From assembly GCA_964489085.1 (NCBI GenBank), contig CAZAXO010000001.1, positions 1,483 to 65,482 of the forward strand: a stretch of DNA of 64,000 nucleotides, given 5' to 3'. Below are positions 1,966 to 48,341 of the stretch, in pieces; positions within the stretch are counted from its first letter, which is position 1, and every line of letters begins with the position of its first letter. The notes beneath the pieces are model-generated. The model did no database searches and was not told the DNA's origin. It saw nothing but the letters and a program-made list of their open reading frames with translations. A program made the translations under genes and the position numbers. This DNA is from an uncultured Candidatus Bathyarchaeia archaeon (GTDB taxonomy: Archaea > Thermoproteota > Bathyarchaeia > 40CM-2-53-6 > DTGE01).

Positions 1966-2038
1966 TTTCTTTTATCAGATTTATTTTTTATTAGATAACA
2001 TAAATATATGCTATGTTATCTAATAAAAAATAAAAAAA

Positions 2039-3424: not shown

Positions 3425-3436
3425 AATACCACCAAA

Positions 3437-4465
3437 TTACGCAGCAATATCCGAGTATTTAGTAAAAAGTCCTAAGTTATCGTCGTCTTGTGGGACGACA
3501 ATTCTCCCACTGTCAACATCCGAAATTGATATATTAGTACCAAACTCCATTTCAAATGGAAGGGTGTAATCGTTATATTTGAACTGAATGACCTGAGTAA
3601 ATACAAAGTAGATCTTATCACCAGAAATAATTACTTCAACTGGATAATCTGTGTAGAAATCAGTAATACTACAGTTAACTTGGTTAACGTTACCGTCCGT
3701 AGTGCTTACGGTATCGTTAAAATCGATCATTAATGCAAAAGCATTAGTAATTCGTTCCAATGTGTCATCGTATTTCTTTTGAGTGTCTACTGCTGGATCG
3801 TATGTTGGCGCTTGACAACGCCAAAATCGTTCGTCGTATAATTCTCGTAACTCCGTAGCATCCATATCATTTACGTCAGATTGCTCAATGTCCCAACCAC
3901 CACTTCCGGCATGAGCATTAGTCGTAGTGCTTTGTGGAACACTCATAATAAACGTAAAATTACCATTAGTCTGATAACTACCCATAGTAACTTCGTCGTT
4001 TGTGCTGGTTAACATATTAAAATTTAGGTCAGACGATTGATGGTAAACGTAAATAGTGTATTGCCCGTTTCCACTAAACAAGTGAAAGTTATTGGCAAAT
4101 ACCGTATCTCCGTCTGGGTCAATTTCGACCCAGAAGTAGGAATGTGCCGAAAGATCCTCAGAAACATCCTCCGCGTCGTCGGACGCCACCTCTTCTTCGA
4201 AATTCGTAGACAAATATGTTACATCTTCGAATTCCTCAATAGAGTCAGACTCTTCTGGTACCCATATAGAAATGGGTACAAAATCCGATACGTCTTCTCC
4301 GTCAACATAGGAAATAACCGTAAACGTAGAAGTTGTCGGAGTAGTAGTCGTTGTAGGTGCAGCAGCCCATAAACCAGCCATATTACCAACAAGGAAAAAC
4401 ACCAACATCCCAGAAACAGCCACAATGATAACAAGGAGTATTGCTTGCGATTTTTTTAATCTCAT
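3437..4465 (-). CDS. secreted protein with Thr-rich linker
   Basis: 342 aa. N-terminal TM/signal, then a TTTTTPTTST tract and acidic segments. Confidence 0.5.
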   Translation of the reverse strand: MRLKKSQAILLVIIVAVSGMLVFFLVGNMAGLWAAAPTTTTTPTTSTFTVISYVDGEDVSDFVPISIWVPEESDSIEEFEDVTYLSTNFEEEVASDDAEDVSEDLSAHSYFWVEIDPDGDTVFANNFHLFSGNGQYTIYVYHQSSDLNFNMLTSTNDEVTMGSYQTNGNFTFIMSVPQSTTTNAHAGSGGWDIEQSDVNDMDATELRELYDERFWRCQAPTYDPAVDTQKKYDDTLERITNAFALMIDFNDTVSTTDGNVNQVNCSITDFYTDYPVEVIISGDKIYFVFTQVIQFKYNDYTLPFEMEFGTNISISDVDSGRIVVPQDDDNLGLFTKYSDIAA

Positions 4466-4768: not shown

Positions 4769-5062
4769 TTATAGATTTTCCATTTTTTCAAATAGTTGTT
4801 GTTGTATCTTCCTAAAATGTCTTACTCTAAAATTGTTATTGAATAGTTTTGCATCATCTATTAAACTATCTAACATTTCAAGAGATTCGATAATTCCTTG
4901 TTCGGTAGTTTTAGGTAATAAAGTACTTTCTATCATCGCTTCTTCGGTTCCGCAGTTTGGACATATTTTGGATTTACCGTCCATTCTACTCAATGCTGAT
5001 CGCGCTACATAACTATTTTTACATCTTGGACATATTTTAGGTTGTTCTTTAATTTCCATCAT
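4769..5062 (-). CDS. zinc-ribbon protein (CxxC...CxxC)
   Basis: 97 aa with a CPRCKNSY...CPNCGTEE zinc ribbon. A TFS/RpoM-like ribbon is possible but not established. Confidence 0.4.
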   Translation of the reverse strand: MMEIKEQPKICPRCKNSYVARSALSRMDGKSKICPNCGTEEAMIESTLLPKTTEQGIIESLEMLDSLIDDAKLFNNNFRVRHFRKIQQQLFEKMENL

Positions 5063-5321
5063 TCTTTTTTACCTCAATATATTCTTTTGATATTAATATT
5101 ACTACTGATGTAAGTTTTCTCTTCAAAACGGAACTGAAATAGCCATCAACATTTTCATCAAATTCTGTAGGAACTGTAAAGAATACCTCAATTTTACACA
5201 AATTCTTTTTTACAAACTTCCCTTGTTCAAAATACTCCTTCTCACATTCTTCGAAAAAGATTCCATTACATCCTTCGAACAATCCACTATTCACTTTAAT
5301 TTTTTGACCGTACTGAAGCAT
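5049..5321 (-). CDS. hypothetical protein
   Basis: 90-aa ORF lying tail-to-head in the minus-strand array. Confidence 0.3.
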   Translation of the reverse strand: MLQYGQKIKVNSGLFEGCNGIFFEECEKEYFEQGKFVKKNLCKIEVFFTVPTEFDENVDGYFSSVLKRKLTSVVILISKEYIEVKKNDGN

Positions 5322-5335
5322 AGCTTTTTATCACC

Positions 5336-5590
5336 TCAAAACTTATAAGGCCTGTGATATTCTTCTTTATATTTTTCATCAGTAAATAGTTTCTTCGATG
5401 GTCTAATATCGCGTTTATGTATTCTTGCAACACTTCCAGGTATATATAGATTAAACTCCGTATCTTCTTCTAAAGTGTCTAAGAAATCTGTCAAAGAATT
5501 TAAACCCAGAAATTTAAGAATTTCTCCATTCTTCTGTTCTATAAAATATATCATCTGATTTTCCATGATAAATTCAGGATTTAATACCAT
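5336..5590 (-). CDS. hypothetical protein
   Basis: 84-aa ORF in the gene array. Confidence 0.3.
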   Translation of the reverse strand: MVLNPEFIMENQMIYFIEQKNGEILKFLGLNSLTDFLDTLEEDTEFNLYIPGSVARIHKRDIRPSKKLFTDEKYKEEYHRPYKF

Positions 5591-5592
5591 TT

Positions 5593-5883
5593 TTATTTAC
5601 ACCTACCTATATACCTATTTTTATTTACTATTTCTTTTCTACGACCCATAGGAGTACTAACTGATATGAGTTCTTCGAATTCTTGTTCATCCATATCAAA
5701 AATTATATGTTGTACAGGAAAACTGTCATCCCCTAGAGCTATTTGAATGGATCTTAGTTTTTCAGAGTTCATAAGTCTAGGCATTCTGTTCCTCATAACT
5801 CTGAATCTATCTTCGTCATCAAAACTGGGATCTCTTCTTGTGTAATAATTCCATATCTCAAGTAATCTAACTTTCGATACCAT
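5593..5883 (-). CDS. hypothetical protein
   Basis: 96-aa ORF, 3 nt from its neighbour. Confidence 0.3.
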   Translation of the reverse strand: MVSKVRLLEIWNYYTRRDPSFDDEDRFRVMRNRMPRLMNSEKLRSIQIALGDDSFPVQHIIFDMDEQEFEELISVSTPMGRRKEIVNKNRYIGRCK

Positions 5884-5887
5884 TTTC

Positions 5888-6394
5888 TCACCCGTTTATA
5901 TTTGAGTTATCTAACTCAGTGACTTCCTGCCAAGTGTCCATTATTTTCGGTTCGTCAGAACATTGATCTTCAAACTCAGAAAATAGTGCCCATGAGTATC
6001 GTACTATATACATCTCAAGTTTCTTGTGAACTAATCTATGAACTCTGTATCCACTGAAGTAATCTCCTCCGTTAAAATGCTTACCTGTTTCTTTAGGGAC
6101 TTCTGTTATTATAGACTCTAGTTCTTCGAAAAATGATTCCCTTAATTTGAGAGATTGAAATCGTCCAAACGGAAGGGCAAACATATATTTTCCTTTCTCA
6201 TCATATATCTTGTAATATGAATAGTAGTCTTGAGCATCGGAACATTGATTATATCGTACATTCTGAATAATAATACATTTTCTTAAATCCCAGTTAAGTA
6301 CCAAACTAAGTCGTTTTAATTCATCTATTGCCTTATCGGAATCAAAAGACTCTGTACTCAGTTCCCAAATTCTGTCCAGTATATTTTTATCCAT
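5888..6394 (-). CDS. hypothetical protein
   Basis: 168-aa ORF. Confidence 0.35.
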   Translation of the reverse strand: MDKNILDRIWELSTESFDSDKAIDELKRLSLVLNWDLRKCIIIQNVRYNQCSDAQDYYSYYKIYDEKGKYMFALPFGRFQSLKLRESFFEELESIITEVPKETGKHFNGGDYFSGYRVHRLVHKKLEMYIVRYSWALFSEFEDQCSDEPKIMDTWQEVTELDNSNING

Positions 6395-6697: not shown

Positions 6698-8248
6698 TTA
6701 TTTTTTAATGAAGTTACTAGCTTCTTTTTGAACTTTACTATATCTGTTATCTGACAACCATTCTCCAAATCTACCAATGGTACTTTCCATTATTTTATGG
6801 AATCTCTCATAAAATTCAAACTCGTGTTCATTAGAATTTTTGGATTCATCCGTGTGTGCATATTCGTGACACAAAAATCTATATATTTGAGCCATTGTAC
6901 TCTCGTAAATTTTGGCGTCCATAAAAAATTTCATGTTTATAGTAATATATGTACTACCGTCAGTCCATCCATTCAACTCTTTAGATGCTTTCATGAGTTT
7001 TAACTCTCTAACCGGTTGACCCTCAAAAACGTAATCATTCAAAAATTTTGCAGCATAAAACAATGTTCGCTTAACCTGAGATTTCAAATGTTTAAAAAGT
7101 TCATTTATATCAACCATTTTCTCACCCTTATCAGTCAAAACCTCAGCAGGCAACTCTTCCCGCATTGAGATTCTAAAAACTTCGTAACCTTCAGTACCAG
7201 CGATACGATTGATTGCTCGCTCAAACCTCTTATCTACGACTAAATATCCACGTCGTAAAGCCCTATCAGCGAGTTTAGAACCACCTTTAGCAAAATATAT
7301 ATCATCATAGGATTTAAGCACATTTATGCTAACCCTTTTTCCATTTGCCAAAAGAATAAGTTCTTTATCCTTTATAGTATCAAGCGAAATATCACCAGCC
7401 ATAAATTTGTCAACTATAATTTTAGCCAAATCTGGTCCGAACTTATTTCGTTTTTTGATATGACGTTCTTCTATTTCTTGAATAAATCTAATAAATCTCT
7501 TTTTTCTGTTCGATTCAACAAAATCGTTCCTAGCAAAATTGGTCTCTATCTTTTTCTTTACATTATAACTGACATTAAAAATACTATGAGAATCTTTAAC
7601 GTAAATTCCCATAGCATATAAACTACCACCGTAGGTACCACCGTAGGACGAATCCTTTAACTTAAATGCTTCAAAAATTTCATTTTGTTCAATTATTTTA
7701 TAATCGGGTTCAATCAACTTTTTATTTATAAACACTTTAGATTTTACCATATAAAAAGTCCTTTCCAATTGTCTACATATACCAGAGACCCTATACGACT
7801 CCATCCCGTCGTATAATTCGACATAGGAATTAGTTCCATCCACCTTCTTATCTAACTTATCTAAGGTATACGATAGACCGTTCTTTCTCACATCAATCTC
7901 TATCTTGTTAAAAAGAGATTCTATTGTAATCCTACCATACTGCATCATCTGAAGAATCCCAATGCCAAAGAAACCTATTTTGGTTTCATCGTCCCTTTTA
8001 GTAGAATCACCAATAGTTTCGAATTCGTTACGTATAATCTCTTCGGTCATACCAGAGCCATCATCTATTACCGATATGTAATCTTTGGTAATAGTGATAT
8101 TAATATTAGCTGAATCGGCATCAATCGAATTTTGAACAACCTCAGAAATAGCCTTTCTAAGGTCTGTACCCTGATACTTCATCATCAGGGAAATTAATTC
8201 CTTTCCAGCCTTAAAGTCCCTTCTTTCCATTTTCTTGACAACCTCCAA
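6698..8248 (-). CDS. GHKL (Bergerat-fold) ATPase with C-terminal HExxH motif
   Basis: N-box EVVQNSIDA, G1 box IDDGSGM and G2 box GFFGIGIL near the N-terminus. C-terminal LCHEYAHTDE is a zincin-like HExxH. Confidence 0.5.
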   Translation of the reverse strand: MEVVKKMERRDFKAGKELISLMMKYQGTDLRKAISEVVQNSIDADSANINITITKDYISVIDDGSGMTEEIIRNEFETIGDSTKRDDETKIGFFGIGILQMMQYGRITIESLFNKIEIDVRKNGLSYTLDKLDKKVDGTNSYVELYDGMESYRVSGICRQLERTFYMVKSKVFINKKLIEPDYKIIEQNEIFEAFKLKDSSYGGTYGGSLYAMGIYVKDSHSIFNVSYNVKKKIETNFARNDFVESNRKKRFIRFIQEIEERHIKKRNKFGPDLAKIIVDKFMAGDISLDTIKDKELILLANGKRVSINVLKSYDDIYFAKGGSKLADRALRRGYLVVDKRFERAINRIAGTEGYEVFRISMREELPAEVLTDKGEKMVDINELFKHLKSQVKRTLFYAAKFLNDYVFEGQPVRELKLMKASKELNGWTDGSTYITINMKFFMDAKIYESTMAQIYRFLCHEYAHTDESKNSNEHEFEFYERFHKIMESTIGRFGEWLSDNRYSKVQKEASNFIKK

Positions 8249-8345
8249 AATGATTATTTATAATTATAATAATCATTTGGTATATTTAAATATTTGTATG
8301 ATAAATGGCTTGTTATAATATTAAAAATAGATTTTAAAAAAAAGT

Positions 8346-8825
8346 TTATATAGACGGACGGAAACATAGTACTTCAAAATCGTTCTGTAACATACCGAGT
8401 TTCTTTTCTAATGAGTCGTGAAACCCAAGTACAAAATGTTTTAACCTAATTGGATTAGTCTTTAAAAACCCAAGAGCACCGTAAATGAAATCCTGTAAAG
8501 ATATATTATATCCATATCCGTAATACAGTTCATATCCATTCGTAAGTTTTATCTTTACAGATGGTATAGTAAACGACGTCCTTTCCTCACCGTAATCTAC
8601 CTTTATCGATGATATAATCTCCTGAGTTTCCAAACAGTCATCTTTATCATTAAGAATAAGTACATCGTACCATTTATCTATCGTAGACTCTATTATTTCG
8701 ATAAAATACCCTTCATTTAATACTACATATAATCCATCGTCAGAAAGCATAACACAATTATATGTACTATTCAATTTAATAATTTCATCCTTCTTATCTT
8801 CAGAAGCCATGTTCAATATATACAC
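8346..8825 (-). CDS. hypothetical protein
   Basis: 159-aa ORF. Confidence 0.35.
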   Translation of the reverse strand: MYILNMASEDKKDEIIKLNSTYNCVMLSDDGLYVVLNEGYFIEIIESTIDKWYDVLILNDKDDCLETQEIISSIKVDYGEERTSFTIPSVKIKLTNGYELYYGYGYNISLQDFIYGALGFLKTNPIRLKHFVLGFHDSLEKKLGMLQNDFEVLCFRPSI

Positions 8826-9271
8826 CCAATTCTACCTGTAGTTATAGTTCTATGTTTGTAATAACACTCCTCCGATATTTCTGAGAAAAATAATATATCA
8901 ACCACCGATGAATAATCAGGATCAGTACACACTTCAGTCCACCAATCAATAGGATGAACCCCAACATAAGCAACACTACGAACCATATTATCTTCCATAA
9001 AAGAAATAAACCAATACCTATTCTCTTCCTGAGGTCTCTCATCGCCAATCCTCCTAAGATTATAAATAAATTTAGATATGGATTGTTCTACCTTTATCAT
9101 TTTTTTAGTATCAAGACAATATTCCTTAATATTTGTATATTTATTTATAATCTTTCGTAAATCTATTTTTAGGTTCTTTATGTCTTTGTTTTCAATTTTT
9201 ATTTTTATTACCTCCTTTATTTTTAGATTTATGGAAATTACAGGTATCGGCAAATGTGTGTGTTTGCTCAC
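8813..9271 (-). CDS. hypothetical protein
   Basis: 152-aa ORF overlapping its neighbour by 13 nt. Confidence 0.35.
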   Translation of the reverse strand: MSKHTHLPIPVISINLKIKEVIKIKIENKDIKNLKIDLRKIINKYTNIKEYCLDTKKMIKVEQSISKFIYNLRRIGDERPQEENRYWFISFMEDNMVRSVAYVGVHPIDWWTEVCTDPDYSSVVDILFFSEISEECYYKHRTITTGRIGCIY

Positions 9272-9665: not shown

Positions 9666-10043
9666 TTAAACCTCTTTTAATATTTGTCTTAAATTCATAA
9701 TAACATATTTACATGCGTAAAGACATCCGTAATAATATATATCTTTCCACTTGTTCTTACTCTTTCTTACTTTTTTTGTATAACTTTTAAATCTATTAAA
9801 TAGATCATCGATAAAAATATCGAGTGGTTTTTTATCGGTCTCATTGGTAAATCTGCGTAATGTATATATTATACCATCCTTCATTTCTTTTGGTACTTCT
9901 ACAAACTTATCGAAAATGAGTTGATATTTGCTACTATCGTAAAACATAATTTCGTTAGTTATCTTGGTATTAATAGTTTCTTTTAGTTTCTTTTTTATTT
10001 CTTTTAAGGCTTCTATGAGTTTCATGTTGTCACCTTTGTACAT
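9666..10043 (-). CDS. hypothetical protein
   Basis: 125-aa ORF. Confidence 0.35.
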   Translation of the reverse strand: MYKGDNMKLIEALKEIKKKLKETINTKITNEIMFYDSSKYQLIFDKFVEVPKEMKDGIIYTLRRFTNETDKKPLDIFIDDLFNRFKSYTKKVRKSKNKWKDIYYYGCLYACKYVIMNLRQILKEV

Positions 10044-10942
10044 TCTCCTATAGCATATGATGTATATTGACTTAATTCCTGTCGTTGTTCTCGAGTTAAC
10101 ATACTCATATATCCTTCATCCCATAAAAATATTTGTACGTTTCTATACCTAGACTTATATCTTAGAATAATTTCTTCTCTGAGTCTTGTCTCAGCGAATT
10201 CATCACCGTTTCTAGCCAGTTCTTTTAACAAAGGAAAGCTTAATTTTGAATCCAAGACTCTTGTGTCGTAACCGTTTTCTACCCATGCTTGTACGTTGGA
10301 ACAGTGTCCCATAAATTCTTCGTCTGGAGTCAACATGGTTGTGTCGGACTCATTCCTGTTCGAGTATAAATCTACGATTTCATCGATGCTTTCGAAGTCG
10401 TCGTTCGAATGGTTGCAGGGGATGCTAATCAATAGATATGAACATTGCATAAATTGATTATTATTTATATAAATTCGTGTACGATTATCATGTTTGACTA
10501 ATTTTAAAAGGGAAGAACGAGGATTTGGATAAAATACTTTGTGAACTAGCCCTTTAGCTCCTATAAGACTAGCTCCAAATAGATCAGTCTTGTCGAAATG
10601 TGTATTATTTAGATTAGACCCTTCAAGATTAGCATCTCTTAGGTTGGTTCTGGTGAGATTAGCCCATTCAAGATTAGCTCCTTGTAAGTTGGCTCCCTCA
10701 AGATTAGCTTCTTGTAAGTTGGACCTCCCTAGGTCTGCTCCTTCAAGACAAGCCCCTCTGAGATCAGATATATTTAAACTAGCCCACCTCAAATTGGCAT
10801 TTTTAAAGTTAATATCCTTTAGATCAGCATTTGTAAGGATAATTTTCGAATAATCTACTCCCTCAAAGTTTGCCCCTCGTAGGTTAGCACCTTTAGTTGG
10901 TATTTTAGTAATACTACCAGTATCAGTATCATAAAACTCCAT
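10022..10942 (-). CDS. pentapeptide-repeat protein
   Basis: About 25 consecutive A(D/N)LxG pentapeptide repeats (ANLRGANFEGVDYS...ANLEGANLQGANLEWANLTRTNLRDANLEGSNL), followed by a unique C-terminal domain of about 150 aa. Confidence 0.7.
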   Translation of the reverse strand: MEFYDTDTGSITKIPTKGANLRGANFEGVDYSKIILTNADLKDINFKNANLRWASLNISDLRGACLEGADLGRSNLQEANLEGANLQGANLEWANLTRTNLRDANLEGSNLNNTHFDKTDLFGASLIGAKGLVHKVFYPNPRSSLLKLVKHDNRTRIYINNNQFMQCSYLLISIPCNHSNDDFESIDEIVDLYSNRNESDTTMLTPDEEFMGHCSNVQAWVENGYDTRVLDSKLSFPLLKELARNGDEFAETRLREEIILRYKSRYRNVQIFLWDEGYMSMLTREQRQELSQYTSYAIGECTKVTT

Positions 10943-13423: not shown

Positions 13424-14314
13424 TTACAACAAATTCAATAAATTATCTCTGGCTGTTCTAAGAGAGACAGTAGTAACCTCTAAAATCTCTGATATATCAT
13501 CCTGTCTAAGACCCCAGTCGTACTTATCAGATAATACGTAAATTATACCAGCAGTAGAACACAACTTATTCCTACCACTATAAATACTATCATACATGTT
13601 AGAGAAATTATAACCATCGGATAATATATCATTCACACTACCATTCAACCCACCAAATTTATTATTTAGGCGGTATATATAATGTCTGACGTATCCATGC
13701 AGAGGCACAGCCTTAACCGGTTTCAAATTGTATTCCTTAATCATTCCATAATGTAATTTCATAACAGTTTTCATATTTAGCTTACCACTATCGTTATTCT
13801 CATCCTTCACATAACCATCATCACCAAAAAAACTCAACATATTTCTTACGTTGAAAGGTGTTTCATGTAATCTAAAACAATAAATTAGAATAGCCATAGC
13901 AAACGCCGCATTACTATAACCAGATAATTTTTTATCTATTGTTTTAAGAATAAGATATTCTACATCCTTTTTAATATCACTATTATCCATTTCAATATGT
14001 TTAAAGTATTTCTCACTCAAAATTTTAATAGTAATACCCTTACGCTTATAACCAGGATCCCAATTTGATACCCTTTTAATTCTACTAAATGTACTTTTAT
14101 CCTTTACGTTATTCCTAATTTCAAAAGTAGTCCTTCGAGTGTTAAAAATACCAGATACAACCTCAGTATGCACCTTATTTCTCACATCTTCACTATCATA
14201 TACTCGACTACGCATAGAGACATATCTATCAGTTCTAACAACTAGACCACAGTCAATACAAGTCACATAAATTGAGTTTTTAACTATATTAATATGCCTA
14301 CATTTATCCACCAT
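13424..14314 (-). CDS. tfb: TFIIB-like transcription factor
   Basis: N-terminal Zn ribbon CRHINIV...CIDCGLVV (the CxxCGLV signature). Two cyclin-fold-like segments (SNAAFAMAILIYCFRLHETPF, and GRNKLCSTAGIIYVLS...VSLRTARDNL). Length 296 aa. Confidence 0.65.
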   Translation of the reverse strand: MVDKCRHINIVKNSIYVTCIDCGLVVRTDRYVSMRSRVYDSEDVRNKVHTEVVSGIFNTRRTTFEIRNNVKDKSTFSRIKRVSNWDPGYKRKGITIKILSEKYFKHIEMDNSDIKKDVEYLILKTIDKKLSGYSNAAFAMAILIYCFRLHETPFNVRNMLSFFGDDGYVKDENNDSGKLNMKTVMKLHYGMIKEYNLKPVKAVPLHGYVRHYIYRLNNKFGGLNGSVNDILSDGYNFSNMYDSIYSGRNKLCSTAGIIYVLSDKYDWGLRQDDISEILEVTTVSLRTARDNLLNLL

Positions 14315-20168: not shown

Positions 20169-21002
20169 TTATACATTTTCCTTTAATTTATGCTTATGTA
20201 GTCTAACAAATACCCTTATATCTGGATTAACCTTTCTCAAATATACTCTTCTGGCTTTCAATAATTCAAGATTAGATATTAAATTAACCCAAAATCTTTT
20301 AGTAAAAATAATAAATATCTTTCTCCATATCCCCTTATATTGTTTCATCAATTCATAATAATACCAATACGGATTTTTATCCCATTTAGGCTCCCAATAC
20401 CACTTAACCCATAAACCATTGTTTATCTCAGCTACCCACCGCCTTAAACAACTTATACACCATCCACACGATCTATGCTTATTATCGTAGCAAGACACCG
20501 TAAAATTTTCTAAATCCTCTACATCTCCACCTTTCTTAATATACTTTTTCAATAATTTAGTCTTTGTATACCTTCTAACTGGAAATTCAATTTTTACCTT
20601 CCTTTTAGTTTGTAATCCAAGAACATCGTCCCAACAATAAGAAATTATATTCTGAGCCATTTTCCTAAATTTATTAGTCTTATCCTTACTAGTTTCACCC
20701 CTGAGAGCACACAAATAAACTATATCCCCGTAAAAACTAGCTATTTCAATAAAGAATAAATTTCGTAAAGGTATATGAGCATTATCCAACTCAAATCCAA
20801 GTATACTACTTGCATCTACAATGATGAGCCTACCTCCGAATCCCCCAAGTTCATCAAACGCATTAATAATTTTTAACTCTTTTTCTTCGTATCTGGAACC
20901 TGTCTTAATGTATAGTAATATATCTGGTTCAAATAGGAAATTACATATAAAACTATCCATTCCACCTGAATACAGTAAGACGGTCTTTTTCTCACTTGAC
21001 AT
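20169..21002 (-). CDS. queC: 7-cyano-7-deazaguanine synthase QueC
   Basis: PP-loop VLLYSGGMDS, YIKTGSRYEEKE, and a C-terminal CGWCISC zinc site. Confidence 0.7.
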   Translation of the reverse strand: MSSEKKTVLLYSGGMDSFICNFLFEPDILLYIKTGSRYEEKELKIINAFDELGGFGGRLIIVDASSILGFELDNAHIPLRNLFFIEIASFYGDIVYLCALRGETSKDKTNKFRKMAQNIISYCWDDVLGLQTKRKVKIEFPVRRYTKTKLLKKYIKKGGDVEDLENFTVSCYDNKHRSCGWCISCLRRWVAEINNGLWVKWYWEPKWDKNPYWYYYELMKQYKGIWRKIFIIFTKRFWVNLISNLELLKARRVYLRKVNPDIRVFVRLHKHKLKENV

Positions 21003-21312
21003 TAATCATTTCCTCCCTAAAATGTATAATTAATTCACTAATGGCATGTTTATAAATCATACTACAATCCGTCGAAGTTTCTATTACGTATAAGTCATCA
21101 TCTAACCAATACATTTTTTTTATGTTATGAAAAAACTTAGGTTTAGGATATATACAATAATGTAACTCAACAAAATCTATTTTTTCTACATCTTCATCAG
21201 AGGTAAAAACAAAGAAACTAGATATATGATCACTCTCTTCTGCTTTCTTAAATAATCCCATTTTACATATATCCTTCAAAAAATCTATTATATTTTTTAC
21301 TGTGAGTCGCAT
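20992..21312 (-). CDS. hypothetical protein
   Basis: 106-aa ORF between queC and the membrane-protein gene. Confidence 0.3.
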   Translation of the reverse strand: MRLTVKNIIDFLKDICKMGLFKKAEESDHISSFFVFTSDEDVEKIDFVELHYCIYPKPKFFHNIKKMYWLDDDLYVIETSTDCSMIYKHAISELIIHFREEMINVK

Positions 21313-21649
21313 GGTCTAAAAATATATGTACATATATTATAAGTAGTATTCTAAGGATAATATCTACAATAATTAATTCATTTATAAAAACAATTACAAA
21401 TAGTAAAATAATAAAGGTAATAGTTGCTAAGAATCTATAACTATGTAAATATAAATGTAACTTACCTTTAAAGCCTAATAATTTATCTTGCGTATTTTTT
21501 TGCCATAAATCACTAACTATATATATGAGCATAATATCAGGCAAAAATGATATAATAACACCAATAAACCCAAAAATAATAAAAGATATAACTACAGTCA
21601 ATATAGTATTAATTATATCTAGCATTATTTTTATTCTTCTATTATTCAC
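21263..21649 (-). CDS. small polytopic membrane protein
   Basis: 128 aa with 3-4 predicted TM helices. Overlaps the GT gene start by 4 nt. Confidence 0.4.
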   Translation of the reverse strand: MNNRRIKIMLDIINTILTVVISFIIFGFIGVIISFLPDIMLIYIVSDLWQKNTQDKLLGFKGKLHLYLHSYRFLATITFIILLFVIVFINELIIVDIILRILLIIYVHIFLDHATHSKKYNRFFEGYM

Positions 21650-22620
21650 AGGACAACCCTATATTTAGATAATTTTTGAATATATTTAAATTCATTTATA
21701 TCTATTATCTTACCATCAAACAATCCAAACAATTTTATTAATCCTAACTTTATCCCGTACATAAATGCCCGAATCTTTAATTTAAAAGGCTGTCCCTTCA
21801 ACTTTATATTATTTATTATAGATAGTAACATACCAATAGGATCTAATCTTCTAAATAAATATATTATTATCTCATTTCTAAACATTAAATAATGTCTGAA
21901 CTTATCAAATTTAGTAATGAGCAACTCTACATTATGTTCAGCAATAGTACTAGGTTGAAATATACAATAAACATCCTTTCTAAATGCTGTATTACTAATA
22001 TCTTCATGGTAAACAAAAAACTCAGTATCAAACCAAAGTTCCTTCTCCTTAAACATCCAAACATCCAATAATACACAAGTAGTTATCATATGACCAATAC
22101 TTATTGATTCTGAAGGTATATCATCAATTTCACCTTTACGTATCGTATTATTAAAATGTTTATTATATTTACCGTAAAACCAAATTCTATTAGTACCACC
22201 GTACAACATTTTTGGACATACAGCATATGTTCTATATTTCTTAATAATATTAAGTAACATTGATATAGTATCTTTCCTAATATAGGAATCAGAATCACAT
22301 ATTAGCAAATACCTAGACACACATTCCCTTATTATTCTATTCTTACCGTAGGAAGCACCAAGATTGGAACCCGAATAAATAATATGAAAGTTTAGTTTTA
22401 TGTATTCAAATAATAGATTATATAACCTATTAATATCAATAGAACTATAACTATCATTAACTAACAGAATTACCTCCCCTATATAATTCCTTTCATATCT
22501 TAACGAATTAAGTAATAAACGTAAACCATTAAATTCATTATTAAACACAATACCTACAGTTATCCTATTCTCATTATACCAATATAAATCGAGGCCGGAT
22601 TTAGTAATGTTTATTTTCAT
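21646..22620 (-). CDS. family-2-like (GT-A fold) glycosyltransferase
   Basis: N-terminal VGIVFNNEF...LLLNSL, LLVNDSYSS, and a DxD-like CDSDS. Length 324 aa. Confidence 0.5.
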   Translation of the reverse strand: MKINITKSGLDLYWYNENRITVGIVFNNEFNGLRLLLNSLRYERNYIGEVILLVNDSYSSIDINRLYNLLFEYIKLNFHIIYSGSNLGASYGKNRIIRECVSRYLLICDSDSYIRKDTISMLLNIIKKYRTYAVCPKMLYGGTNRIWFYGKYNKHFNNTIRKGEIDDIPSESISIGHMITTCVLLDVWMFKEKELWFDTEFFVYHEDISNTAFRKDVYCIFQPSTIAEHNVELLITKFDKFRHYLMFRNEIIIYLFRRLDPIGMLLSIINNIKLKGQPFKLKIRAFMYGIKLGLIKLFGLFDGKIIDINEFKYIQKLSKYRVVL

Positions 22621-22635
22621 TTTAATCCCCTTTTT

Positions 22636-23952
22636 CTAAATGATATTTCTAAAATAGTCGGAACATCTCTGTATACAACGTATAGCATTTCTAATTATGA
22701 CTCCATTAACATTAAATTCACGAGATGAGAGTTCAAACTCAATTTTATTAAAATTCTTCAACTTTTCTTCATTACAACAATATTTCTCATTAATCCATAA
22801 TAAGTATTTTTTTTCATTTTCAGTGGCATCACAAAAACACAATCCACAGGTAGTACATTTCATAAGACCACATTTTTTACAGAAAGTTTTAATAGAAGAT
22901 GCTATAGTTATTGGGCTTCCACAGAACCAACAAATATGATCTTCAGATTCTTTTATTTCTCTGTTTCTTGCCCTAACACACTGTTTTAATCCAGTATCAT
23001 AAAAATTGACGTTTTTACCTCCCTTATGCATAACTTCTAACCTCGTTAATTTTTCTAAATCGTAATAGCAAGAAAGGTAACATCCATTACATTCCTCAAT
23101 TCTTTCTTTAAAAATCTTAACGTACCATTCAAATCCATACTTCTCTATACTACGGTTTAAATCGAATATATTAAAATCAAATGGCACCATATCCTCACAG
23201 GGCATAATCATGAGGTCGTTATTTACTACTAATCTATAAGGATAACTACAATGCCAACTCATATCCATAAATTTTGGTATATTTCTAATATATTCTTTTG
23301 TATTATGAATCAGAAGTTTATCATAATTATATAAAACATTCTTAACATCATCTATTATTCTATATTTCAGACGCGAATCGTTAATAGAAATAGTAGAATC
23401 GTAGTTTCCCATCAGACAATGTTTTCTATCGTCTGTACTATAATTATATACAGCAACTATAGTCCACACTTTTAGGCTGGTAAAATATCTGATAGTATCA
23501 AATAATTTTCCAATAGTCTTTTCTTCGTATAATAGATTTATGGAAACATCATCAAAATATTTTCTATATATATCAAACTTATCCTTAAAACCTTTGTAGG
23601 AATCTACACTTATAGTTATATTCTTAAGACCAGATTCACTCAACCTCATAGCAATAGATTCACTTAACTTACTACCATTAGTAACTATAGTGAAATCCAT
23701 TCCCAATGTATCACTGAGATATCCTATGACATCGTATATATGTTCATATTCCAATGGTTCACCCCCCATGATAACAATAAATTCAGACAAATTACTCATT
23801 ATTTCCAACGCATTTATAATATCTATAAAATTAGCATCCTTAGTCTTAAGAGATTTGGAAGAACAAAAAGGACAGTCATAACTACAATTTCTATTTGATA
23901 TAAACAAACAAGATTTAAACATCTTCTCTTTCATTCTAATTTTTTCTACCAT
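22636..23952 (-). CDS. radical SAM enzyme with C-terminal Cys-rich SPASM/twitch-like domain
   Basis: CSYDCPFC (Cx3Cx2C) at residues 23-30, a VIMGGEPLEY glycine-rich motif, and C-terminal CNGCYLSC...CWFCGSP...CKKCGLMKCTTCGLCFC. Confidence 0.6.
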   Translation of the reverse strand: MVEKIRMKEKMFKSCLFISNRNCSYDCPFCSSKSLKTKDANFIDIINALEIMSNLSEFIVIMGGEPLEYEHIYDVIGYLSDTLGMDFTIVTNGSKLSESIAMRLSESGLKNITISVDSYKGFKDKFDIYRKYFDDVSINLLYEEKTIGKLFDTIRYFTSLKVWTIVAVYNYSTDDRKHCLMGNYDSTISINDSRLKYRIIDDVKNVLYNYDKLLIHNTKEYIRNIPKFMDMSWHCSYPYRLVVNNDLMIMPCEDMVPFDFNIFDLNRSIEKYGFEWYVKIFKERIEECNGCYLSCYYDLEKLTRLEVMHKGGKNVNFYDTGLKQCVRARNREIKESEDHICWFCGSPITIASSIKTFCKKCGLMKCTTCGLCFCDATENEKKYLLWINEKYCCNEEKLKNFNKIEFELSSREFNVNGVIIRNAIRCIQRCSDYFRNII

Positions 23953-24066
23953 TTAAATCAACTCTGGTCCTTCGATATATGTTTTCATTTTACCATTAGG
24001 TACAAAAATACGACACGAATCACCGTGACTGTGAAATTCAATAGTATCCCATTCAATCTCATCCAT
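23953..24066 (-). CDS. 37-aa ORF translationally coupled to the radical SAM gene (candidate precursor peptide or small protein)
   Basis: MDEIEWDTIEFHSHGDSCRIFVPNGKMKTYIEGPELI. Its TAA stop directly abuts the ATG of the radical SAM gene. It is below the ORF-track size cutoff. Confidence 0.2.
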   Translation of the reverse strand: MDEIEWDTIEFHSHGDSCRIFVPNGKMKTYIEGPELI

Positions 24067-24226
24067 TTTTTAACGATCTACCAACTTAGGTTTCTTAATT
24101 TTATCCATTAGTTCATCGACTTCATCTGGAGATAATATAACCTGACTACCTTCTATTATTATCCTATAAAAATCTTTAAACGAACCACTCGTTAGCTTCT
24201 CAACATCAATCGGTATTTTTACCATA

Positions 24227-24535
24227 TTATCTCCTCGTTAATTCTTTATATTTCTCCATTGCTGTGTTAAAATCCAATCGATATAAGATTTTAAGCGTTC
24301 TAAGAAAGAAATAATTCAAACGACTGCTAGCTAATTCAAAATTCGTCTTTTCGGTAAACGACATTTTCAGTTCCAAAAACATTCTAGTCATTTCATCGAA
24401 AAATTGTTCGATTACGGCATCTCGTTCCTTTGGTGTTCTTTCGTTAAAATCCTCCATTAATTTTGAATCGTTAATGTAAATCGTTTTAACAGGAGTTTGA
24501 AACTTTTCAAACATTTTATCTAATTCTTCACCCAC
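24227..24535 (-). CDS. hypothetical protein
   Basis: 102-aa ORF. Confidence 0.3.
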   Translation of the reverse strand: MGEELDKMFEKFQTPVKTIYINDSKLMEDFNERTPKERDAVIEQFFDEMTRMFLELKMSFTEKTNFELASSRLNYFFLRTLKILYRLDFNTAMEKYKELTRR

Positions 24536-24660: not shown

Positions 24661-25230
24661 TCACCTATCGATTAAACTCAATATTTCACTCCTTAATTTG
24701 AGGTTATTAAGAGCATCTCCTTTAACGGAGGATGTAACCATTTTAACGTTTTCCTTCTTAACACCACGCATAACTTCACACAAATGAAGTGCTTCAATTA
24801 CAACCATAACCGACGCCGGTTTCAAATCTGACTCATAAATAAATTTACATATATCATTGGTCATTTTTTCTTGTATATTTAATCTATGAGCAAATTTGTC
24901 TACGATTCTAGATAGTTTCGATATACCAATTATATTACCTTCATTTGACAAATATGCTACATCGACCCTACCATAAAAAGGTAACATATGGTGTTCACAT
25001 ATGGAATAAAATTTTATATTTTTTGATATTACTAACTCAGAAGCTATATCTTCGTGTTTAAATACTTTTATTAGAGAATTATCGTCGTTATTATTATATC
25101 CATTGAAAATCTCTTCATACATTCTTGCTACTCTATTTGGAGTTTCCTTTATTCCCTCTCGTAACTCATCTGTACCTTCTATCTCTAAAAGTAAAGTTTT
25201 AATACATCTTCTAATTTTATCCAGATTCAT
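24661..25230 (-). CDS. folE: GTP cyclohydrolase I
   Basis: SICEHHMLPF, GISKLSRIVD, QEKMT and ALHLCEVMRGV motifs. Confidence 0.85.
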   Translation of the reverse strand: MNLDKIRRCIKTLLLEIEGTDELREGIKETPNRVARMYEEIFNGYNNNDDNSLIKVFKHEDIASELVISKNIKFYSICEHHMLPFYGRVDVAYLSNEGNIIGISKLSRIVDKFAHRLNIQEKMTNDICKFIYESDLKPASVMVVIEALHLCEVMRGVKKENVKMVTSSVKGDALNNLKLRSEILSLIDR

Positions 25231-26054
25231 TCCATACCAATAAATTTGTGTAGTTGAGGTGTAATACCCATAAAATTAAACTCTTTACTATATAAATCCT
25301 TATTTACGTCACTTGCGATTTTTGCTATAGTTTTTAAATACGTTCTCATATACCGTTTAGATTTTCCATCATACATCTTTACATACTTATCATTCGTTTT
25401 TTCGGTATTAATAGGTGATAAATAAAATGGAAATTCATATAAATAATTTTTTCTGATAAAGCTAAGTATTAGTTCAATATCTCTACTTACATGTTCGGGA
25501 TCAATCATGTATTTAAAGTTGACTTCTATATTTTCGTAACCATGGTGTAATAGTTCTTCCAATAAATGTATTGGTATCCTATAATTTGATTTCTGAGTTA
25601 TTGTATATATTAAATATCTACCGGATATAGTTTGTTTATACGGACTACCAATTTCGGTAAGTAAGGATAACGTACCGTTGGTTTCTATCTTGATATTAAA
25701 ATGCTTATTATTTTTTACGTGAGTATATACATATTGAGTTAATCTGACTATTTCATCCTTAAATAAAAGTGGTTCACCACCAGTAAATACTAAATGTCTA
25801 AAATGATACTTATTACACATATCATATAAATATTTTTGAAACGTTATACCTATTTTATCTAGTAAAAGACTATCTCTAGTAAAATCGGTGTCACAGTACG
25901 AACATTTCAAATTACATTTATTAAACCTTATAAATAAGCTTGGCATCCCAATATATTTCCCCTCTCCCTGTATGGAGAAGAATATGTCACTTACCTTATC
26001 TCTAATATCCTCTACATTAATCCAAGACATGTAATCACCCAAACACATTCCCAA
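25227..26054 (-). CDS. queE: 7-carboxy-7-deazaguanine synthase QueE (radical SAM)
   Basis: FSIQGEGKYIGMPSLFIRFNKCNLKCSYCDT and FTGGEPLL. 4-nt overlap with folE. Confidence 0.8.
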   Translation of the reverse strand: MGMCLGDYMSWINVEDIRDKVSDIFFSIQGEGKYIGMPSLFIRFNKCNLKCSYCDTDFTRDSLLLDKIGITFQKYLYDMCNKYHFRHLVFTGGEPLLFKDEIVRLTQYVYTHVKNNKHFNIKIETNGTLSLLTEIGSPYKQTISGRYLIYTITQKSNYRIPIHLLEELLHHGYENIEVNFKYMIDPEHVSRDIELILSFIRKNYLYEFPFYLSPINTEKTNDKYVKMYDGKSKRYMRTYLKTIAKIASDVNKDLYSKEFNFMGITPQLHKFIGME

Positions 26055-26493
26055 ATATTTTTTCTAATATACCATCCCTACGTAATTCAAAATTGAACCA
26101 ATCATAAGCCTCCTTTATTTCAACCTCCACACTAGACGTATCAGATTCGTATAATTTAACTGAAGTAAAAACCTGTAGATCTACAGGTCCGTTATATATC
26201 AAATCAAACATCATTTTATCAACAAGGATACATATAGCTGATGCGATATTTTCAGCAGTCGGATTAAACTTTATTACATTATTAAGGAATTTGTGATCAA
26301 ATCGATTTTCTATTTCTTTCTTAATTAAATTAAAATCTATAGCCATACCATTTTGCCAATAACAATTAATACCACCCTTAAGTTCAATAGTCACATGTCC
26401 ATACCAGGTGTGACCATGTAAATTTTTACATTTGCCTTTGTAATCTACTAATTTGTGCGCCGCACTAAATTTAAAATGTTTACATATTATCAT
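26035..26493 (-). CDS. queD: 6-carboxy-5,6,7,8-tetrahydropterin synthase QueD
   Basis: FKFSAAHKL...CKNLHGHTWYGHV (Cx5HGH) signature. Confidence 0.8.
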   Translation of the reverse strand: MIICKHFKFSAAHKLVDYKGKCKNLHGHTWYGHVTIELKGGINCYWQNGMAIDFNLIKKEIENRFDHKFLNNVIKFNPTAENIASAICILVDKMMFDLIYNGPVDLQVFTSVKLYESDTSSVEVEIKEAYDWFNFELRRDGILEKIFGNVFG

Positions 26494-27424: not shown

Positions 27425-27910
27425 TTATTTCGCTTCCTTAGAAGCTTTTTCCTTCTCCATTTGATACAGGATAAAAGTTCCGGTAATCACTCCACGCCAA
27501 ACCGGAAACTTTCCGGGTTTAGCTTCCATAAATTCGTTGAATTCAGCTAACAGAGCTTTGGTGATTTTGTGTTCCTTACCATTTTTATCCATAACCTTGC
27601 TCCCCAATGCAGGAAGCTTTTTTGGATCAGTTTTTAATTTGGGAGCACCTCGTTTCTTAGGTGCCTTTTTGGTTGTTGCCTTTTTCTTTTTAGAGGTTTT
27701 AGGAGTAGGTTCTTCCTCATCTTCGTCCTCTTCCTCATCTTCGTCCTCAAATTCTTCTTCCATTTCGGCTGCTTCCTCTAATGCTTCTTCTAATTCGTCC
27801 TCTTCGTCCTCATCAAGTTCAATATCTTCAAGATCGTCAACAACCTCAATTTCCTCTTCTACTTCTTGTTTCTTTTTTTGGGTCTTTTTTGGCATATTCA
27901 TTACTTCCAT
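27425..27910 (-). CDS. acidic/basic chromatin-like protein of the WRGxxTGTF paralog family
   Basis: Long poly-Glu/Asp tract followed by a Lys-rich tract (KKKKATTKKAPKKRGAPK) and C-terminal PVWRGVITGTF. Confidence 0.4.
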   Translation of the reverse strand: MEVMNMPKKTQKKKQEVEEEIEVVDDLEDIELDEDEEDELEEALEEAAEMEEEFEDEDEEEDEDEEEPTPKTSKKKKATTKKAPKKRGAPKLKTDPKKLPALGSKVMDKNGKEHKITKALLAEFNEFMEAKPGKFPVWRGVITGTFILYQMEKEKASKEAK

Positions 27911-37805: not shown

Positions 37806-38912
37806 TTAGAATAAGTAGTCGAATTTTTTAAGTATGTTTAGTTTTCTTGGGTCTATTTGTTTATAGTAATTTTTAAAATCATCACTTTGTAAACATAATA
37901 GTATATAAGGGCAAAAATCAAAACATTTGTTTGACGGTTTTCTTTTGAATTTACATAGATTAATGTCGTTGATGAGTTCTTTTTTTAGATTATCATACTC
38001 TCTTAACATATCGATATTAAATGGTATATATTTAAATGTATTTTTCCAGTCTTGTATGTATAAAACGAAACCAGATGTTGGAGTTAGTCCTTTTAGATCT
38101 TCCAATATGTTTATACCATCTTTAGTTACAACCTTATATATATTCTTATTTGAGGATAGTAATCTGAAATAAGAGCCAAGTTCGAAGTTTATTGTTTTTT
38201 TATCGTAGTTGGTATAGATTTTAGGTAAGCTTTTTATATATTCGTCAGTTACTTTTGGATTGTCTCTTAAATTATAATATTTTGGTTTTCCGGTTTTGTA
38301 ATCTCCTATTGCTATAGTGTCGGTTGTTTTTCTATGTATCACATCTATAACTCCGACATCACAATTATTGTGATTTTCTATTCTTAGCTCTCTATATATT
38401 GGTTTTATGTATTTCCAAGAACGATTATTTCCAATATCTTCTCGGATTTTAAAGATTCTATACGTTTCGTAGTTAGCATATTTTAGAAACAGATACTTAT
38501 ATGTTAATATTTTTTTTTCGTTCTCAGGTACAAAGCTTCTACATTTTAGATATATATAGTTTCTAACTTTTAACTTATTTGTGTATGTTGTTAATAATTT
38601 TCTACTTAACTTATTCCATACTTTATTAAATACGAAATGAGCGTTCGAACCGAAGATACCGGAGTTCGAGTTTCTACCATCGTTAATAAAGACATTTTTT
38701 ACTCTAGCGTAATCGAATTGTTTTGGACAAATTGGATATTTACCTACCCAAGACTTACTTAAATATTTTAGTTTATTAATCATATAATCTATTGTATTTA
38801 GATTAAACGGTATATAAACTAATTTGTCTCTTAGTAAATTATTATATAATTGTAGGTATTCATCTCTGGTTAGATTATATTGTTTTTGTATTAAATTATA
38901 ATTAGAGGTCAT
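37806..38912 (-). CDS. Cas4/RecB-family PD-(D/E)xK nuclease-like protein
   Basis: VIDVIHRK...IAIGDYKTGK (the D...DYK motif), a QxxxY-like segment, and a C-terminal Cys cluster CKFKRKPSNKCFDFCPYILLC typical of Fe-S Cas4-type nucleases. Confidence 0.4.
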   Translation of the reverse strand: MTSNYNLIQKQYNLTRDEYLQLYNNLLRDKLVYIPFNLNTIDYMINKLKYLSKSWVGKYPICPKQFDYARVKNVFINDGRNSNSGIFGSNAHFVFNKVWNKLSRKLLTTYTNKLKVRNYIYLKCRSFVPENEKKILTYKYLFLKYANYETYRIFKIREDIGNNRSWKYIKPIYRELRIENHNNCDVGVIDVIHRKTTDTIAIGDYKTGKPKYYNLRDNPKVTDEYIKSLPKIYTNYDKKTINFELGSYFRLLSSNKNIYKVVTKDGINILEDLKGLTPTSGFVLYIQDWKNTFKYIPFNIDMLREYDNLKKELINDINLCKFKRKPSNKCFDFCPYILLCLQSDDFKNYYKQIDPRKLNILKKFDYLF

Positions 38913-48059: not shown

Positions 48060-48341
48060 GTGATTACATTTCTAGTTAAGGAAGCTCGTAGTCATTTGGA
48101 GGAATACGGTATTGTATACACTTTACGAGAGTTTTCAAATCGTCGTGTTGGTAAATGTAAATATAATTATTTTCCAAATGATAGGAGTAGAGGGTCTGTA
48201 TTTATTGTTTTTATTGGGAATTTTTTTGATAAGGAATGTGAATTAGTACCATACGTTAAAGATTCCGGTTTTAATTCTTTGAATGAGTGGTTAGAGAAGG
48301 CAGGTAAAGCCAGAATGTTATACTCGGTAAGTTTATTATAG
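48060..48341 (+). CDS. hypothetical protein
   Basis: 93-aa ORF. Confidence 0.3.
   Translation: MITFLVKEARSHLEEYGIVYTLREFSNRRVGKCKYNYFPNDRSRGSVFIVFIGNFFDKECELVPYVKDSGFNSLNEWLEKAGKARMLYSVSLL

Follow-up and report, generated by a model that had tools for sequence, protein, structure and literature searches.

Why should a radical S-adenosylmethionine (SAM) enzyme, a glycosyltransferase and a small membrane protein be encoded in the middle of a gene cluster for 7-deazaguanine synthesis? The question is raised by a stretch of 64,000 nucleotides from contig CAZAXO010000001.1 of an uncultured Candidatus Bathyarchaeia archaeon, referred to here as the window, which is probably part of an archaeal virus. 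In it, open reading frames (ORFs) for a radical SAM protein (hereafter rSAM), a family 2 glycosyltransferase (GT2) and a small transmembrane protein (TM protein) lie between the genes for QueC and FolE, with QueE and QueD encoded upstream and a DpdA-like protein downstream (Table 1). Our preferred answer, which we hold tentatively and put a little short of an even chance, is that rSAM would act in viral 7-deazaguanine DNA modification as a tailoring enzyme not described before, that GT2 would contribute a coupled glycosylation in some lineages, and that a Cys-rich domain at the C-terminus of rSAM would be a docking module shared with other tailoring enzymes. The observations behind it are the domain architecture, conservation, gene order and co-occurrence of these genes.

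Judged from its predicted products, the array fits a viral 7-deazaguanine DNA-modification cluster, with FolE, QueD, QueE and QueC and a DpdA-family gene. An earlier annotation of the same DNA (the first-pass annotation) had seen the module as inserted between queC and folE and had listed four ORFs for it, one of them of only 37 aa; position and ORFs were recovered as described, all four on the minus strand. The rSAM, GT2 and TM ORFs are considered real genes because each has 44–55% identical homologs in other contigs. The best NCBIfam matches of the QueE-like protein were QueE models (TIGR03963, 81.4 bits), yet below their cutoffs. QueC exceeds the phage QueCs (223–227 aa) in length by about 50 aa, and its Pfam match spans residues 69–189 only; this longer form is common to the window and to the related contigs L001 and L003 (54–56% identity). 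Two small ORFs separate QueC from the DpdA-like gene, whose product has no Pfam or PDB match and forms the weakest link in the cluster assignment.

The rSAM protein was assigned to the Radical SAM superfamily by PF04055 (49.7 bits; cutoff 29.5). Its CX3CX2C motif (C23/C27/C30) and G63-G64-E65-P66 are invariant in the aligned homologs. A search of 5.8e9 clustered proteins returned only five close homologs (49–51% identity), across which 19 Cys are invariant. The window-family profile was then used for an exhaustive search of 1.84e9 representative proteins, and here the protein fell into two separable parts, since the two halves of the profile matched distinct sets of proteins: positions ~5–297 matched rSAM proteins of about 300 aa (629 at E < 1e-10), and positions ~294–434 matched short proteins devoid of an rSAM core (P0025, P0070, P0113).

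The end of the first part, residues 233–300, is best described as a twitch-like region with a predicted single auxiliary cluster. In order, it contains W233, C235, a beta-hairpin, P251-C252 and C288-x2-C291, followed in the close clade only by C295. Across 40 family members W233, C235, C252, G290 and C291 are invariant past the core and C288 is present in at least 90%; the wider family thus keeps just four post-core Cys, C235-x16-C252 plus C288-x2-C291. This is a twitch-type pattern, and C-x16-C followed by CxxC would correspond to the four-Cys arrangement of BtrN. The best solved match of the family profile was MoaA (6e-26), in whose alignment C235 falls on the leading Cys of ‘FCSTC’ and C252 on the one that follows ‘DGKFYG’; SkfB, SuiB and viperins were also matched, and the nearest solved rSAM enzymes include the nucleotide-acting MoaA, viperins, BlsE and AbmM.

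Of the two Cys features described in the first-pass annotation, the N-terminal CX3CX2C site stands, while the C-terminal seven-Cys auxiliary domain has to be replaced by the four-Cys twitch-like pattern; the dense Cys cluster at residues 325–392 belongs to the separate C-terminal domain. Classification by hidden Markov models (HMMs) recovered Radical_SAM and left the SPASM, QueE and peptide-maturase families below cutoff or unmatched. SPASM identity was rejected because no match to PF13186 or TIGR04085 appeared at E ≤ 0.01 and the protein has C-x16-C...C-x2-C(-x3-C), with four Cys conserved, in place of the canonical seven-Cys motif CX9-15GX4C...CX2CX5CX3C...C, which binds two auxiliary clusters. 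A QueE paralog was rejected on score (TIGR03963, 24.6 bits against a cutoff of 260.1); a separate QueE-like gene is present. The best NCBIfam match overall was prokaryotic viperin (E 1.8e-14, over the N-terminal 170 residues), rejected at 53.6 bits against 180 for NF038283 with model positions 10–170 of 281 covered; MoaA itself was rejected at 40 bits against 325, the family consensus having no Arg counterpart to the MoaA ‘TRAR’ after the second Cys. The Arg residues of this motif (R266, R268) presumably bind GTP, and the auxiliary cluster of MoaA is held by three Cys.

The second part of the protein is a Cys-rich domain outside any Pfam family. It has eleven invariant Cys (C325, C341, C344, C358, C361, C366, C369, C372, C374, C392, C430), and H339, R327, E337 and E380 are also invariant. 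In P0025, P0070 and P0113 it occurs alone or attached to other N-terminal domains. DNA binding was considered for this domain and received no specific support from its charge or from a weak match to ZFP57 (E 6e-4). The domain was absent from 50,697 deposited phage genomes. A search of IMG/VR retrieved two contigs only, L013 and L014, in both of which all the invariant Cys and His are retained. In L013 the domain forms the C-terminus of an FkbM-type methyltransferase (7425–8339) directly upstream of dpdA; in L014 it forms the C-terminus of a HAD-like protein (7656–8285), after which come a separate methyltransferase and dpdA. The partners of the domain in phage dpdA clusters are thus different enzymes from that in the window, but likewise plausible as tailoring enzymes, which makes for a ‘Rosetta stone’ connection by domain fusion.

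The same two contigs also carry a counterpart of the first part of the window protein. Together with L016, L018 and L019, which were found with the phage rSAM as query and have the same gene order minus the Cys-rich domain, they make up five IMG/VR phage contigs that have bacterial-type replication genes and the order QueD, QueE, FolE, twitch rSAM, QueC, HAD-like protein, DpdA. The twitch rSAM proteins (327–341 aa) are encoded between folE and queC in all five loci. In L013 and L014 the replication genes include a DNA polymerase I-like or a PolIII-alpha-like one, and the DpdA proteins of these two contigs match phrog_887 (E 1e-46 and 2e-54). In L014, a phosphoribosyltransferase-FolE fusion is encoded at 5045–5965. 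Alignment of the phage rSAMs to the window protein covers the first part of the latter in full, at 21% identity (E 5e-11 and 3e-9); common to both are the rSAM motif, W-x-C hairpin P/C-C and CxxC. Eighteen members of the phage clade were among the top 150 of the window-family profile search. Sequence comparison places the phage and window proteins in the same broad family, at family level only, and we do not claim orthology. The 50,697 phage genomes contained no close homolog of the phage-type rSAM, only a partial moaA-like match. The phage twitch rSAM could be a conserved part of phage deazaguanine clusters that has so far gone unreported. Our case for a link between the window protein and deazaguanine is built on the recurrence of both its halves, as separate genes, in dpdA clusters of unrelated viruses.

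A second line of evidence comes from loci related to the window itself. An rSAM homolog is encoded between folE and queC in each of L001/L002 and L003, and L006 has one after folE; the first-pass annotation had named the lack of any such neighbourhood as the finding that would sink its proposal. In L001/L002 the order is QueD, QueE, FolE, two small ORFs, a VanZ-like membrane protein (then a 65-aa ORF) and rSAM, continuing with a MazG-like protein, the TM homolog, four small ORFs, QueC, a 169-aa ORF and DpdA; L003 has the same order minus the MazG-like gene and the 65-aa ORF. In L001 the VanZ-like gene is at 6834–7238 and the MazG-like gene at 8740–9039; a 126-aa ORF without family match (9874–10254) is kept in L003, and a second, faint MazG-like ORF of 81 aa (10442–10687) precedes QueC. 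L006/L012 read TnpB, QueD, QueE, FolE, a 48-aa ORF and rSAM, where the contig ends; the TnpB of L006 (73–1296, a marine-sediment contig) is of the IS605 type (OrfB_IS605 / Cas12f-like) and lies directly upstream of QueD.

Every ORF of the related loci was compared with the window ORFs by blastp. Over about 10 kb the window shares with L001/L003 a primase-like protein, a pair of small ORFs that precede QueD, the cluster enzymes, rSAM and the TM protein (identities: QueD 46%, QueE 36%, FolE 57%, rSAM 49%, TM 45%, QueC 54%, DpdA 67%). All remaining ORFs between folE and queC have been replaced. Since rSAM and the membrane protein were retained while the other intervening ORFs were exchanged, they behave like pathway genes and not like filler. 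In L001 and L003 rSAM is retained without GT2.

Further relatives were scarce. IMG/VR held no match for the window rSAM clade, GT2 or the TM protein, and the deposited phage genomes no match to the window rSAM. A scan of JGI metagenomes yielded nothing beyond one contig already found, and the search of GTDB genomes for further loci yielded one spurious 18-aa match only.

The first-pass annotation had also described a GT-A fold glycosyltransferase and a polytopic membrane protein downstream of rSAM, and both descriptions agree with our results. PF00535 (Glycos_transf_2) matched the former at 46.7 bits (cutoff 23.3), which places it in GT2 with the GT-A fold, and its DSD motif is at residues 109–111, with D109 and D111 invariant in four homologs. 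Hydropathy analysis revealed no TM segment. In 5.8e9 proteins the family has four members only (window, L005, L007, L008), every one of them encoded directly downstream of a homolog of the window rSAM. The best PDB relatives are RmlT, SunS, GalT1 and TarS, matched over the N-terminal half only (E ~1e-6); RmlT and TarS decorate wall teichoic acid, SunS is a peptide S-glycosyltransferase, and these are cytoplasmic GT-A enzymes. Coupling of all genes through 4-nt overlaps, as first proposed, holds for the GT2/TM junction (GTGA) but not for rSAM/GT2, where a 15-nt spacer containing GGGG was found.

The 128-aa membrane protein contains two hydrophobic blocks of 44–49 residues. L001/L002, L003 and L007 each encode a homolog (E 1e-22 to 1e-28), and the alignment shows invariant polar motifs, namely PD(30–31), D40, D48, H58xxxH62-S63 and H101xxxD105xxT108-H109. 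YdjM (PF04307) was the top Pfam match in all four members and over the same region, sub-threshold in each case (best E 0.0063; 9–13 bits in two members against the 29-bit Pfam threshold), and the protein is called YdjM-like only tentatively. GtrA (PF04138) gave no match to it even at E ≤ 10. A GtrAB system was rejected on two counts, GT2 having no C-terminal TM helices and its partner no GtrA match.

According to our preferred reading, FolE, QueD, QueE and QueC would make preQ0 from GTP and the DpdA-like protein would swap preQ0 for guanine in viral DNA; preQ0 synthesis and the DpdA exchange step are established for these families. The rSAM cluster (C23/C27/C30) would generate the 5'-deoxyadenosyl radical, and a single twitch-type auxiliary cluster (C235/C252/C288/C291) would support modification of the deazaguanine base, of the corresponding nucleotide or of the base once embedded in DNA. 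As a portable metal-binding module, the Cys-rich domain could bring tailoring enzymes to a common partner, DpdA or DNA: rSAM in the window, a methyltransferase or HAD-type enzyme in the phages. Where present, the soluble GT2 would transfer a sugar, either to what rSAM has produced or to the same acceptor, and the YdjM-like membrane protein would be the conserved third partner. Substrate, order of steps, docking role and sugar acceptor are what we infer here. A bolder version is, in our estimate, rather unlikely to hold in full: archaeal and bacterial viruses would make at least one further 7-deazaguanine derivative by means of a twitch rSAM, the archaeal-virus product would be glycosylated by GT2 and be the first sugar-bearing deazaguanine in DNA, and the Cys-rich domain would dock rSAM, methyltransferase and HAD enzymes to DpdA or DNA.

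Several observations weigh against a role in deazaguanine tailoring. The archaeal-virus contigs are syntenic relatives and not independent, and their retention of rSAM and the TM protein therefore counts as roughly one evolutionary observation. No deazaguanine gene accompanies the rSAM-GT2 pair of L005, L007 and L008 over the 2–2.6 kb visible on these short contigs, and their other genes had no homolog in the window by blastp. Because these neighbourhoods are otherwise unrelated, rSAM, GT2 and TM look like a mobile trio of their own. The closest rSAM homologs devoid of the C-terminal domain (P0012, P0014, P0160; 32–36% identity) are outside deazaguanine clusters; their contigs are rich in ORFans and carry integrases, and up to a distance of 10 kb no deazaguanine gene was seen. 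The likeness of the phage rSAMs is at family level: the window-clade profile scored 45–55 bits, and the reverse comparison 26–57 where matched. The Cys-rich domain is without marked basic charge (pI 5.9–9.0). The conserved TM protein, the VanZ-like protein of L001 and L003 and the Acyl_transf_3 protein of L007 have no obvious role in DNA-base chemistry. Finally, both AlphaFold models are poor. For rSAM the mean pLDDT was 53.9 (5-sequence alignment; below 50 in the twitch region), and Foldseek with this model returned generic rSAM folds at a TM-score of ~0.3 (SuiB, viperin-like, MoaA, BlsE, AbmM); for GT2 it was 48.4 (4 sequences), and only the N-terminal Rossmann-like half is confident. Among the readings offered in the first-pass annotation, extension of the 7-deazaguanine pathway nevertheless remains the best supported, though incomplete: co-localisation with the cluster was confirmed, whereas the pair in L005, L007 and L008 lacks adjacent deazaguanine genes.

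The genes encoding rSAM homologs devoid of the C-terminal domain are in L009, L010 and L011 (Table 1). Tyrosine integrases lie beside rSAM in these contigs, one of which is 208 kb long, and an RmuC-like gene is present in two of the three.

The strongest competitor, which we nonetheless consider unlikely, has the rSAM-GT2-TM module independent of deazaguanine and modifying a host membrane glycoconjugate or lipid, as GtrA/GtrB/Oac do in temperate phages, its position in the cluster being accidental. The trio is the sole thing common to the window and L005, L007 and L008, and the TM protein is kept in both lineages. The best solved GT2 relatives, RmlT and TarS, decorate cell-wall polymers. Envelope or virion glycosylation had been another first-pass reading, and its membrane-linked part is kept alive by the TM protein, by the VanZ-like membrane protein adjoining rSAM in L001 and L003, and by L007, where the order is rSAM, GT2, a 142-aa ORF, an N6/N4 DNA methyltransferase, an Acyl_transf_3 (phage-type) O-acetyltransferase and the TM homolog. 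The methyltransferase and O-acetyltransferase genes of L007 occupy 1784–3586, and the presence of a DNA methyltransferase inside the module does not favour a membrane target. Nor does the absence of TM helices from GT2, among whose PDB matches was no GtrB or dolichol-phosphate glycosyltransferase. The TM protein, for its part, has hydrolase-like His/Asp motifs in place of a GtrA match, and rSAM persists without GT2 in L001 and L003. A membrane module would also leave unexplained why the rare Cys-rich domain and a related rSAM recur in dpdA clusters of phages that are devoid of membrane and glycosyltransferase genes.

Less probable still, to the point of being a long shot, is a nucleotide-pool enzyme: a MoaA/viperin-like rSAM would turn an NTP, either GTP or a nucleotide of deazaguanine, into a modified nucleotide for host takeover, counter-defence or polymerase incorporation instead of tailoring the base after DpdA. 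The viperin and MoaA matches described above are of this kind, the Foldseek and HMM matches are enriched in nucleotide-acting rSAM enzymes, and nucleotide-handling genes occur in the neighbourhoods (MazG-like beside rSAM in L001, HAD-like in the phages, the phosphoribosyltransferase-FolE fusion in L014). However, the scores are far under the cutoffs, the ‘TRAR’ Arg has no counterpart, the family has the four-Cys pattern, and such an enzyme would give no role to GT2, the membrane protein or the Cys-rich domain.

The 37-aa ORF was at the centre of the remaining alternative. Its TAA abuts the first ATG of the rSAM ORF, as the first-pass annotation had stated; that ATG, however, is doubtful as the start. 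The homologs begin at a position aligned with M7 (ATG at 23934), which makes M7 the probable start, 18 nt past the stop of the 37-aa ORF. The ORF has no family match, and in seven related loci the best tblastn hit (E 0.54) was inside unrelated genes. The slot upstream of rSAM is filled by a 65-aa ORF with CxxC in L001, a 48-aa ORF with paired CxxC in L006 and an unrelated 52-aa ORF in L005, and by no ORF in L003. By this comparison the 37-aa ORF appears to be outside the system, and nothing marks it as a precursor peptide.

The proposed viral cassette for a ribosomally synthesized and post-translationally modified peptide (RiPP), with a 37-aa precursor matured by a SPASM enzyme and then glycosylated, is effectively refuted: the abutting ORF, SuiB and other peptide maturases among the remote rSAM matches and SunS among the weak GT2 matches speak for it, but the ORF is not conserved, the rSAM motif begins at residue 23 and so leaves no room for an N-terminal RiPP recognition element (RRE), PqqD gave no match in rSAM or neighbouring ORFs, the protein has the four-Cys twitch pattern with no SPASM match, and its peptide-maturase NCBIfam scores are all more than 10-fold under the cutoffs.

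Table 1. Features of the window and of related contigs. Coordinates are those of the window unless a contig is named.
Feature	Position	Strand	Basis or remark
rSAM, 438 aa: radical SAM core with twitch-like domain and fused Cys-rich C-terminal domain	22636–23952	-	PF04055, E 6.3e-13
Radical SAM core, residues ~15–225	23278–23910	-	CX3CX2C at C23/C27/C30; GGEP at 63–66
Twitch-like auxiliary-cluster region (predicted), residues 233–300	23053–23256	-	40-member alignment and MoaA hairpin alignment
Cys-rich domain, ~120 aa, residues 318–438	22639–23001	-	separable in profile search; presumably metal-binding
GT2, soluble GT-A glycosyltransferase, 324 aa	21646–22620	-	PF00535, E 4.5e-12
TM protein, 128 aa, ~4 TM helices, tentatively YdjM-like	21263–21649	-	hydropathy; homolog alignment
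37-aa ORF	23953–24066	-	non-conserved
51-aa and 102-aa ORFs between FolE and 37-aa ORF	24070–24535	-	lineage-specific
FolE	24661–25230	-	Pfam GTP_cyclohydroI
QueE	25227–26054	-	Pfam Radical_SAM/Fer4_12
QueD	26035–26493	-	Pfam PTPS
89-aa ORF (106 aa if start is 21312), gap between TM gene and QueC	20992–21261	-	lineage-specific filler
QueC, 277 aa	20169–21002	-	PF06508, E 9.8e-14; phrog_1550
DpdA-like transglycosylase, 294 aa	18959–19843	-	phrog_1279 ‘queuine tRNA-ribosyltransferase’, E 2.8e-6
RFC/clamp-loader-like AAA protein	47100–48059		
rSAM homologs without C-terminal domain, 298–302 aa	L009 10001–10909; L010 10001–10897; L011 3170–4066		
Phage twitch rSAM genes	L013 4470–5495; L014 5962–6957; L016 6001–6978; L018 6001–6972; L019 2046–3020		

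The small ORFs that fill the rest of the interval appear specific to this lineage. The 51-aa and 102-aa ORFs have no family matches and no homologs in the related loci; the same loci contain no homolog of the 89-aa ORF, and its match to Hfq was sub-threshold (E 0.0023).

The window as a whole has a G+C content of about 30%, and the minus strand carries nearly all coding up to ~45 kb. The closest cultured relatives of its family-B DNA polymerase are haloarchaeal tailed viruses (~23% identity), and one relative comes from a marine-sediment metagenome (LCGC14). Other replication and repair genes encode an XPG/FEN1-type nuclease, an ERCC4 nuclease, a DEAD/HHH helicase and UDG, and a PD-(D/E)XK nuclease (37806–38912) adjoins the polymerase. 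GC skew is positive over the main plus-strand coding stretch (45687–50216) and again at 62–64 kb. The window yielded no tRNA genes. Further genes encode a GHKL-type ATPase (HATPase_c_3; 6698–8248), an Mrr_cat restriction-endonuclease-like protein (60137–61129) and a 306-aa pentapeptide-repeat protein (10022–10942; Pfam E 4e-37), which could be an anti-restriction protein of the DNA-mimic type. A 161-aa protein with a long Glu/Asp-rich run (27425–27910) has a weak homolog in L001, and the Ser-rich 125-aa ORF on the opposite strand is spurious. A TFB-like label for the ORF at 13424–14314 (296 aa, N-terminal CxxC...CxxC) was dropped for want of a Pfam match.

Each new viral deazaguanine derivative has revealed new enzymology and new evasion of restriction or CRISPR. 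The window and its relatives offer three clonable targets: an rSAM kept in dpdA clusters of viruses from two unrelated lineages, the rare Cys-rich domain by which rSAM, methyltransferase and HAD-type enzymes are linked to such clusters, and a GT2 seen behind rSAM alone. If our preferred reading is true, radical and glycosyl chemistry would be extended to deazaguanine DNA and a recruitment domain for DNA-tailoring enzymes would be defined; if it is false, the trio would represent a mobile, membrane-linked module in uncultured, probably archaeal viruses.

Among known systems, phage GtrA/GtrB/Oac have the same gene types as the window trio (a GT2 and a small four-TM protein, with Acyl_transf_3 in L007), but the window GT2 is devoid of the GtrB TM helices, its TM partner does not match GtrA, and rSAM is no Gtr component. 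SPASM maturases (SuiB, PqqE, anSME-like) belong to the same radical SAM supergroup and are remote matches to the window rSAM, which differs from them in having no SPASM match, seven-Cys motif, RRE or conserved precursor. Among twitch enzymes, the window rSAM shares with BtrN and MoaA an architecture of ~300 aa and an auxiliary hairpin that aligns with that of MoaA; the CxxC downstream of its hairpin presumably resembles that of BtrN. Unlike either enzyme it carries an extra 120-aa Cys-rich domain, and it scores far below the MoaA cutoffs. Its likeness to viperin consists in the best NCBIfam match, below cutoff and with partial coverage of the model, and in viperin-like structures among the top matches; viperins are not known to have an auxiliary cluster.

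Another point of comparison is RaSEA, which performs a radical SAM step on preQ0-lysine in archaeal tRNA, works only in complex with ArcS and is the only known rSAM besides QueE to act on a preQ0 derivative (PMC11298593). The comparison is one of function and not of homology. No ArcS-like gene was seen among the ORFs scanned in and beside the cluster, and no RaSEA-named family was among 20 NCBIfam matches.

Sugars on deazaguanines have a precedent, since galactosyl- and mannosyl-queuosine occur in animal tRNA. The deazapurine metabolites huimycin and dapiramicin are likewise glycosylated by tailoring glycosyltransferases, those of the huimycin group belonging to PF13439 (10.64898/2026.04.15.718813). 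Such compounds are an example of a dedicated glycosyltransferase acting on a deazaguanine scaffold alongside preQ0 genes, although, unlike the window GT2, the huimycin and queuosine enzymes are of other families and act on free metabolites or tRNA, not on viral DNA.

A further comparison is with the viral 7-deazaguanine clusters themselves, in which DpdA and FolE/QueD/QueE/QueC are accompanied by the tailoring proteins QueF, Gat-QueC/ArcS, DpdL, DpdM and DpdN (Hutinet et al., 2019, PMC6884629; Cui et al., 2023, PMC10516641). Eight 7-deazaguanine derivatives have been described in viral DNA, and DpdL, DpdM and DpdN were found as extra lineage-specific genes interleaved with pathway genes (PMC6884629; PMC10516641). 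Neither report describes a counterpart of rSAM, the Cys-rich domain, GT2 or the membrane protein, and no deazaguanine pathway with a second rSAM or a glycosyltransferase was found in the open-access literature searched. Like the known clusters, the window combines the full preQ0 pathway and a DpdA-like gene in one operon-like array; it stands apart from the systems behind the eight described derivatives, none of which needs a second radical SAM enzyme or a glycosyltransferase.

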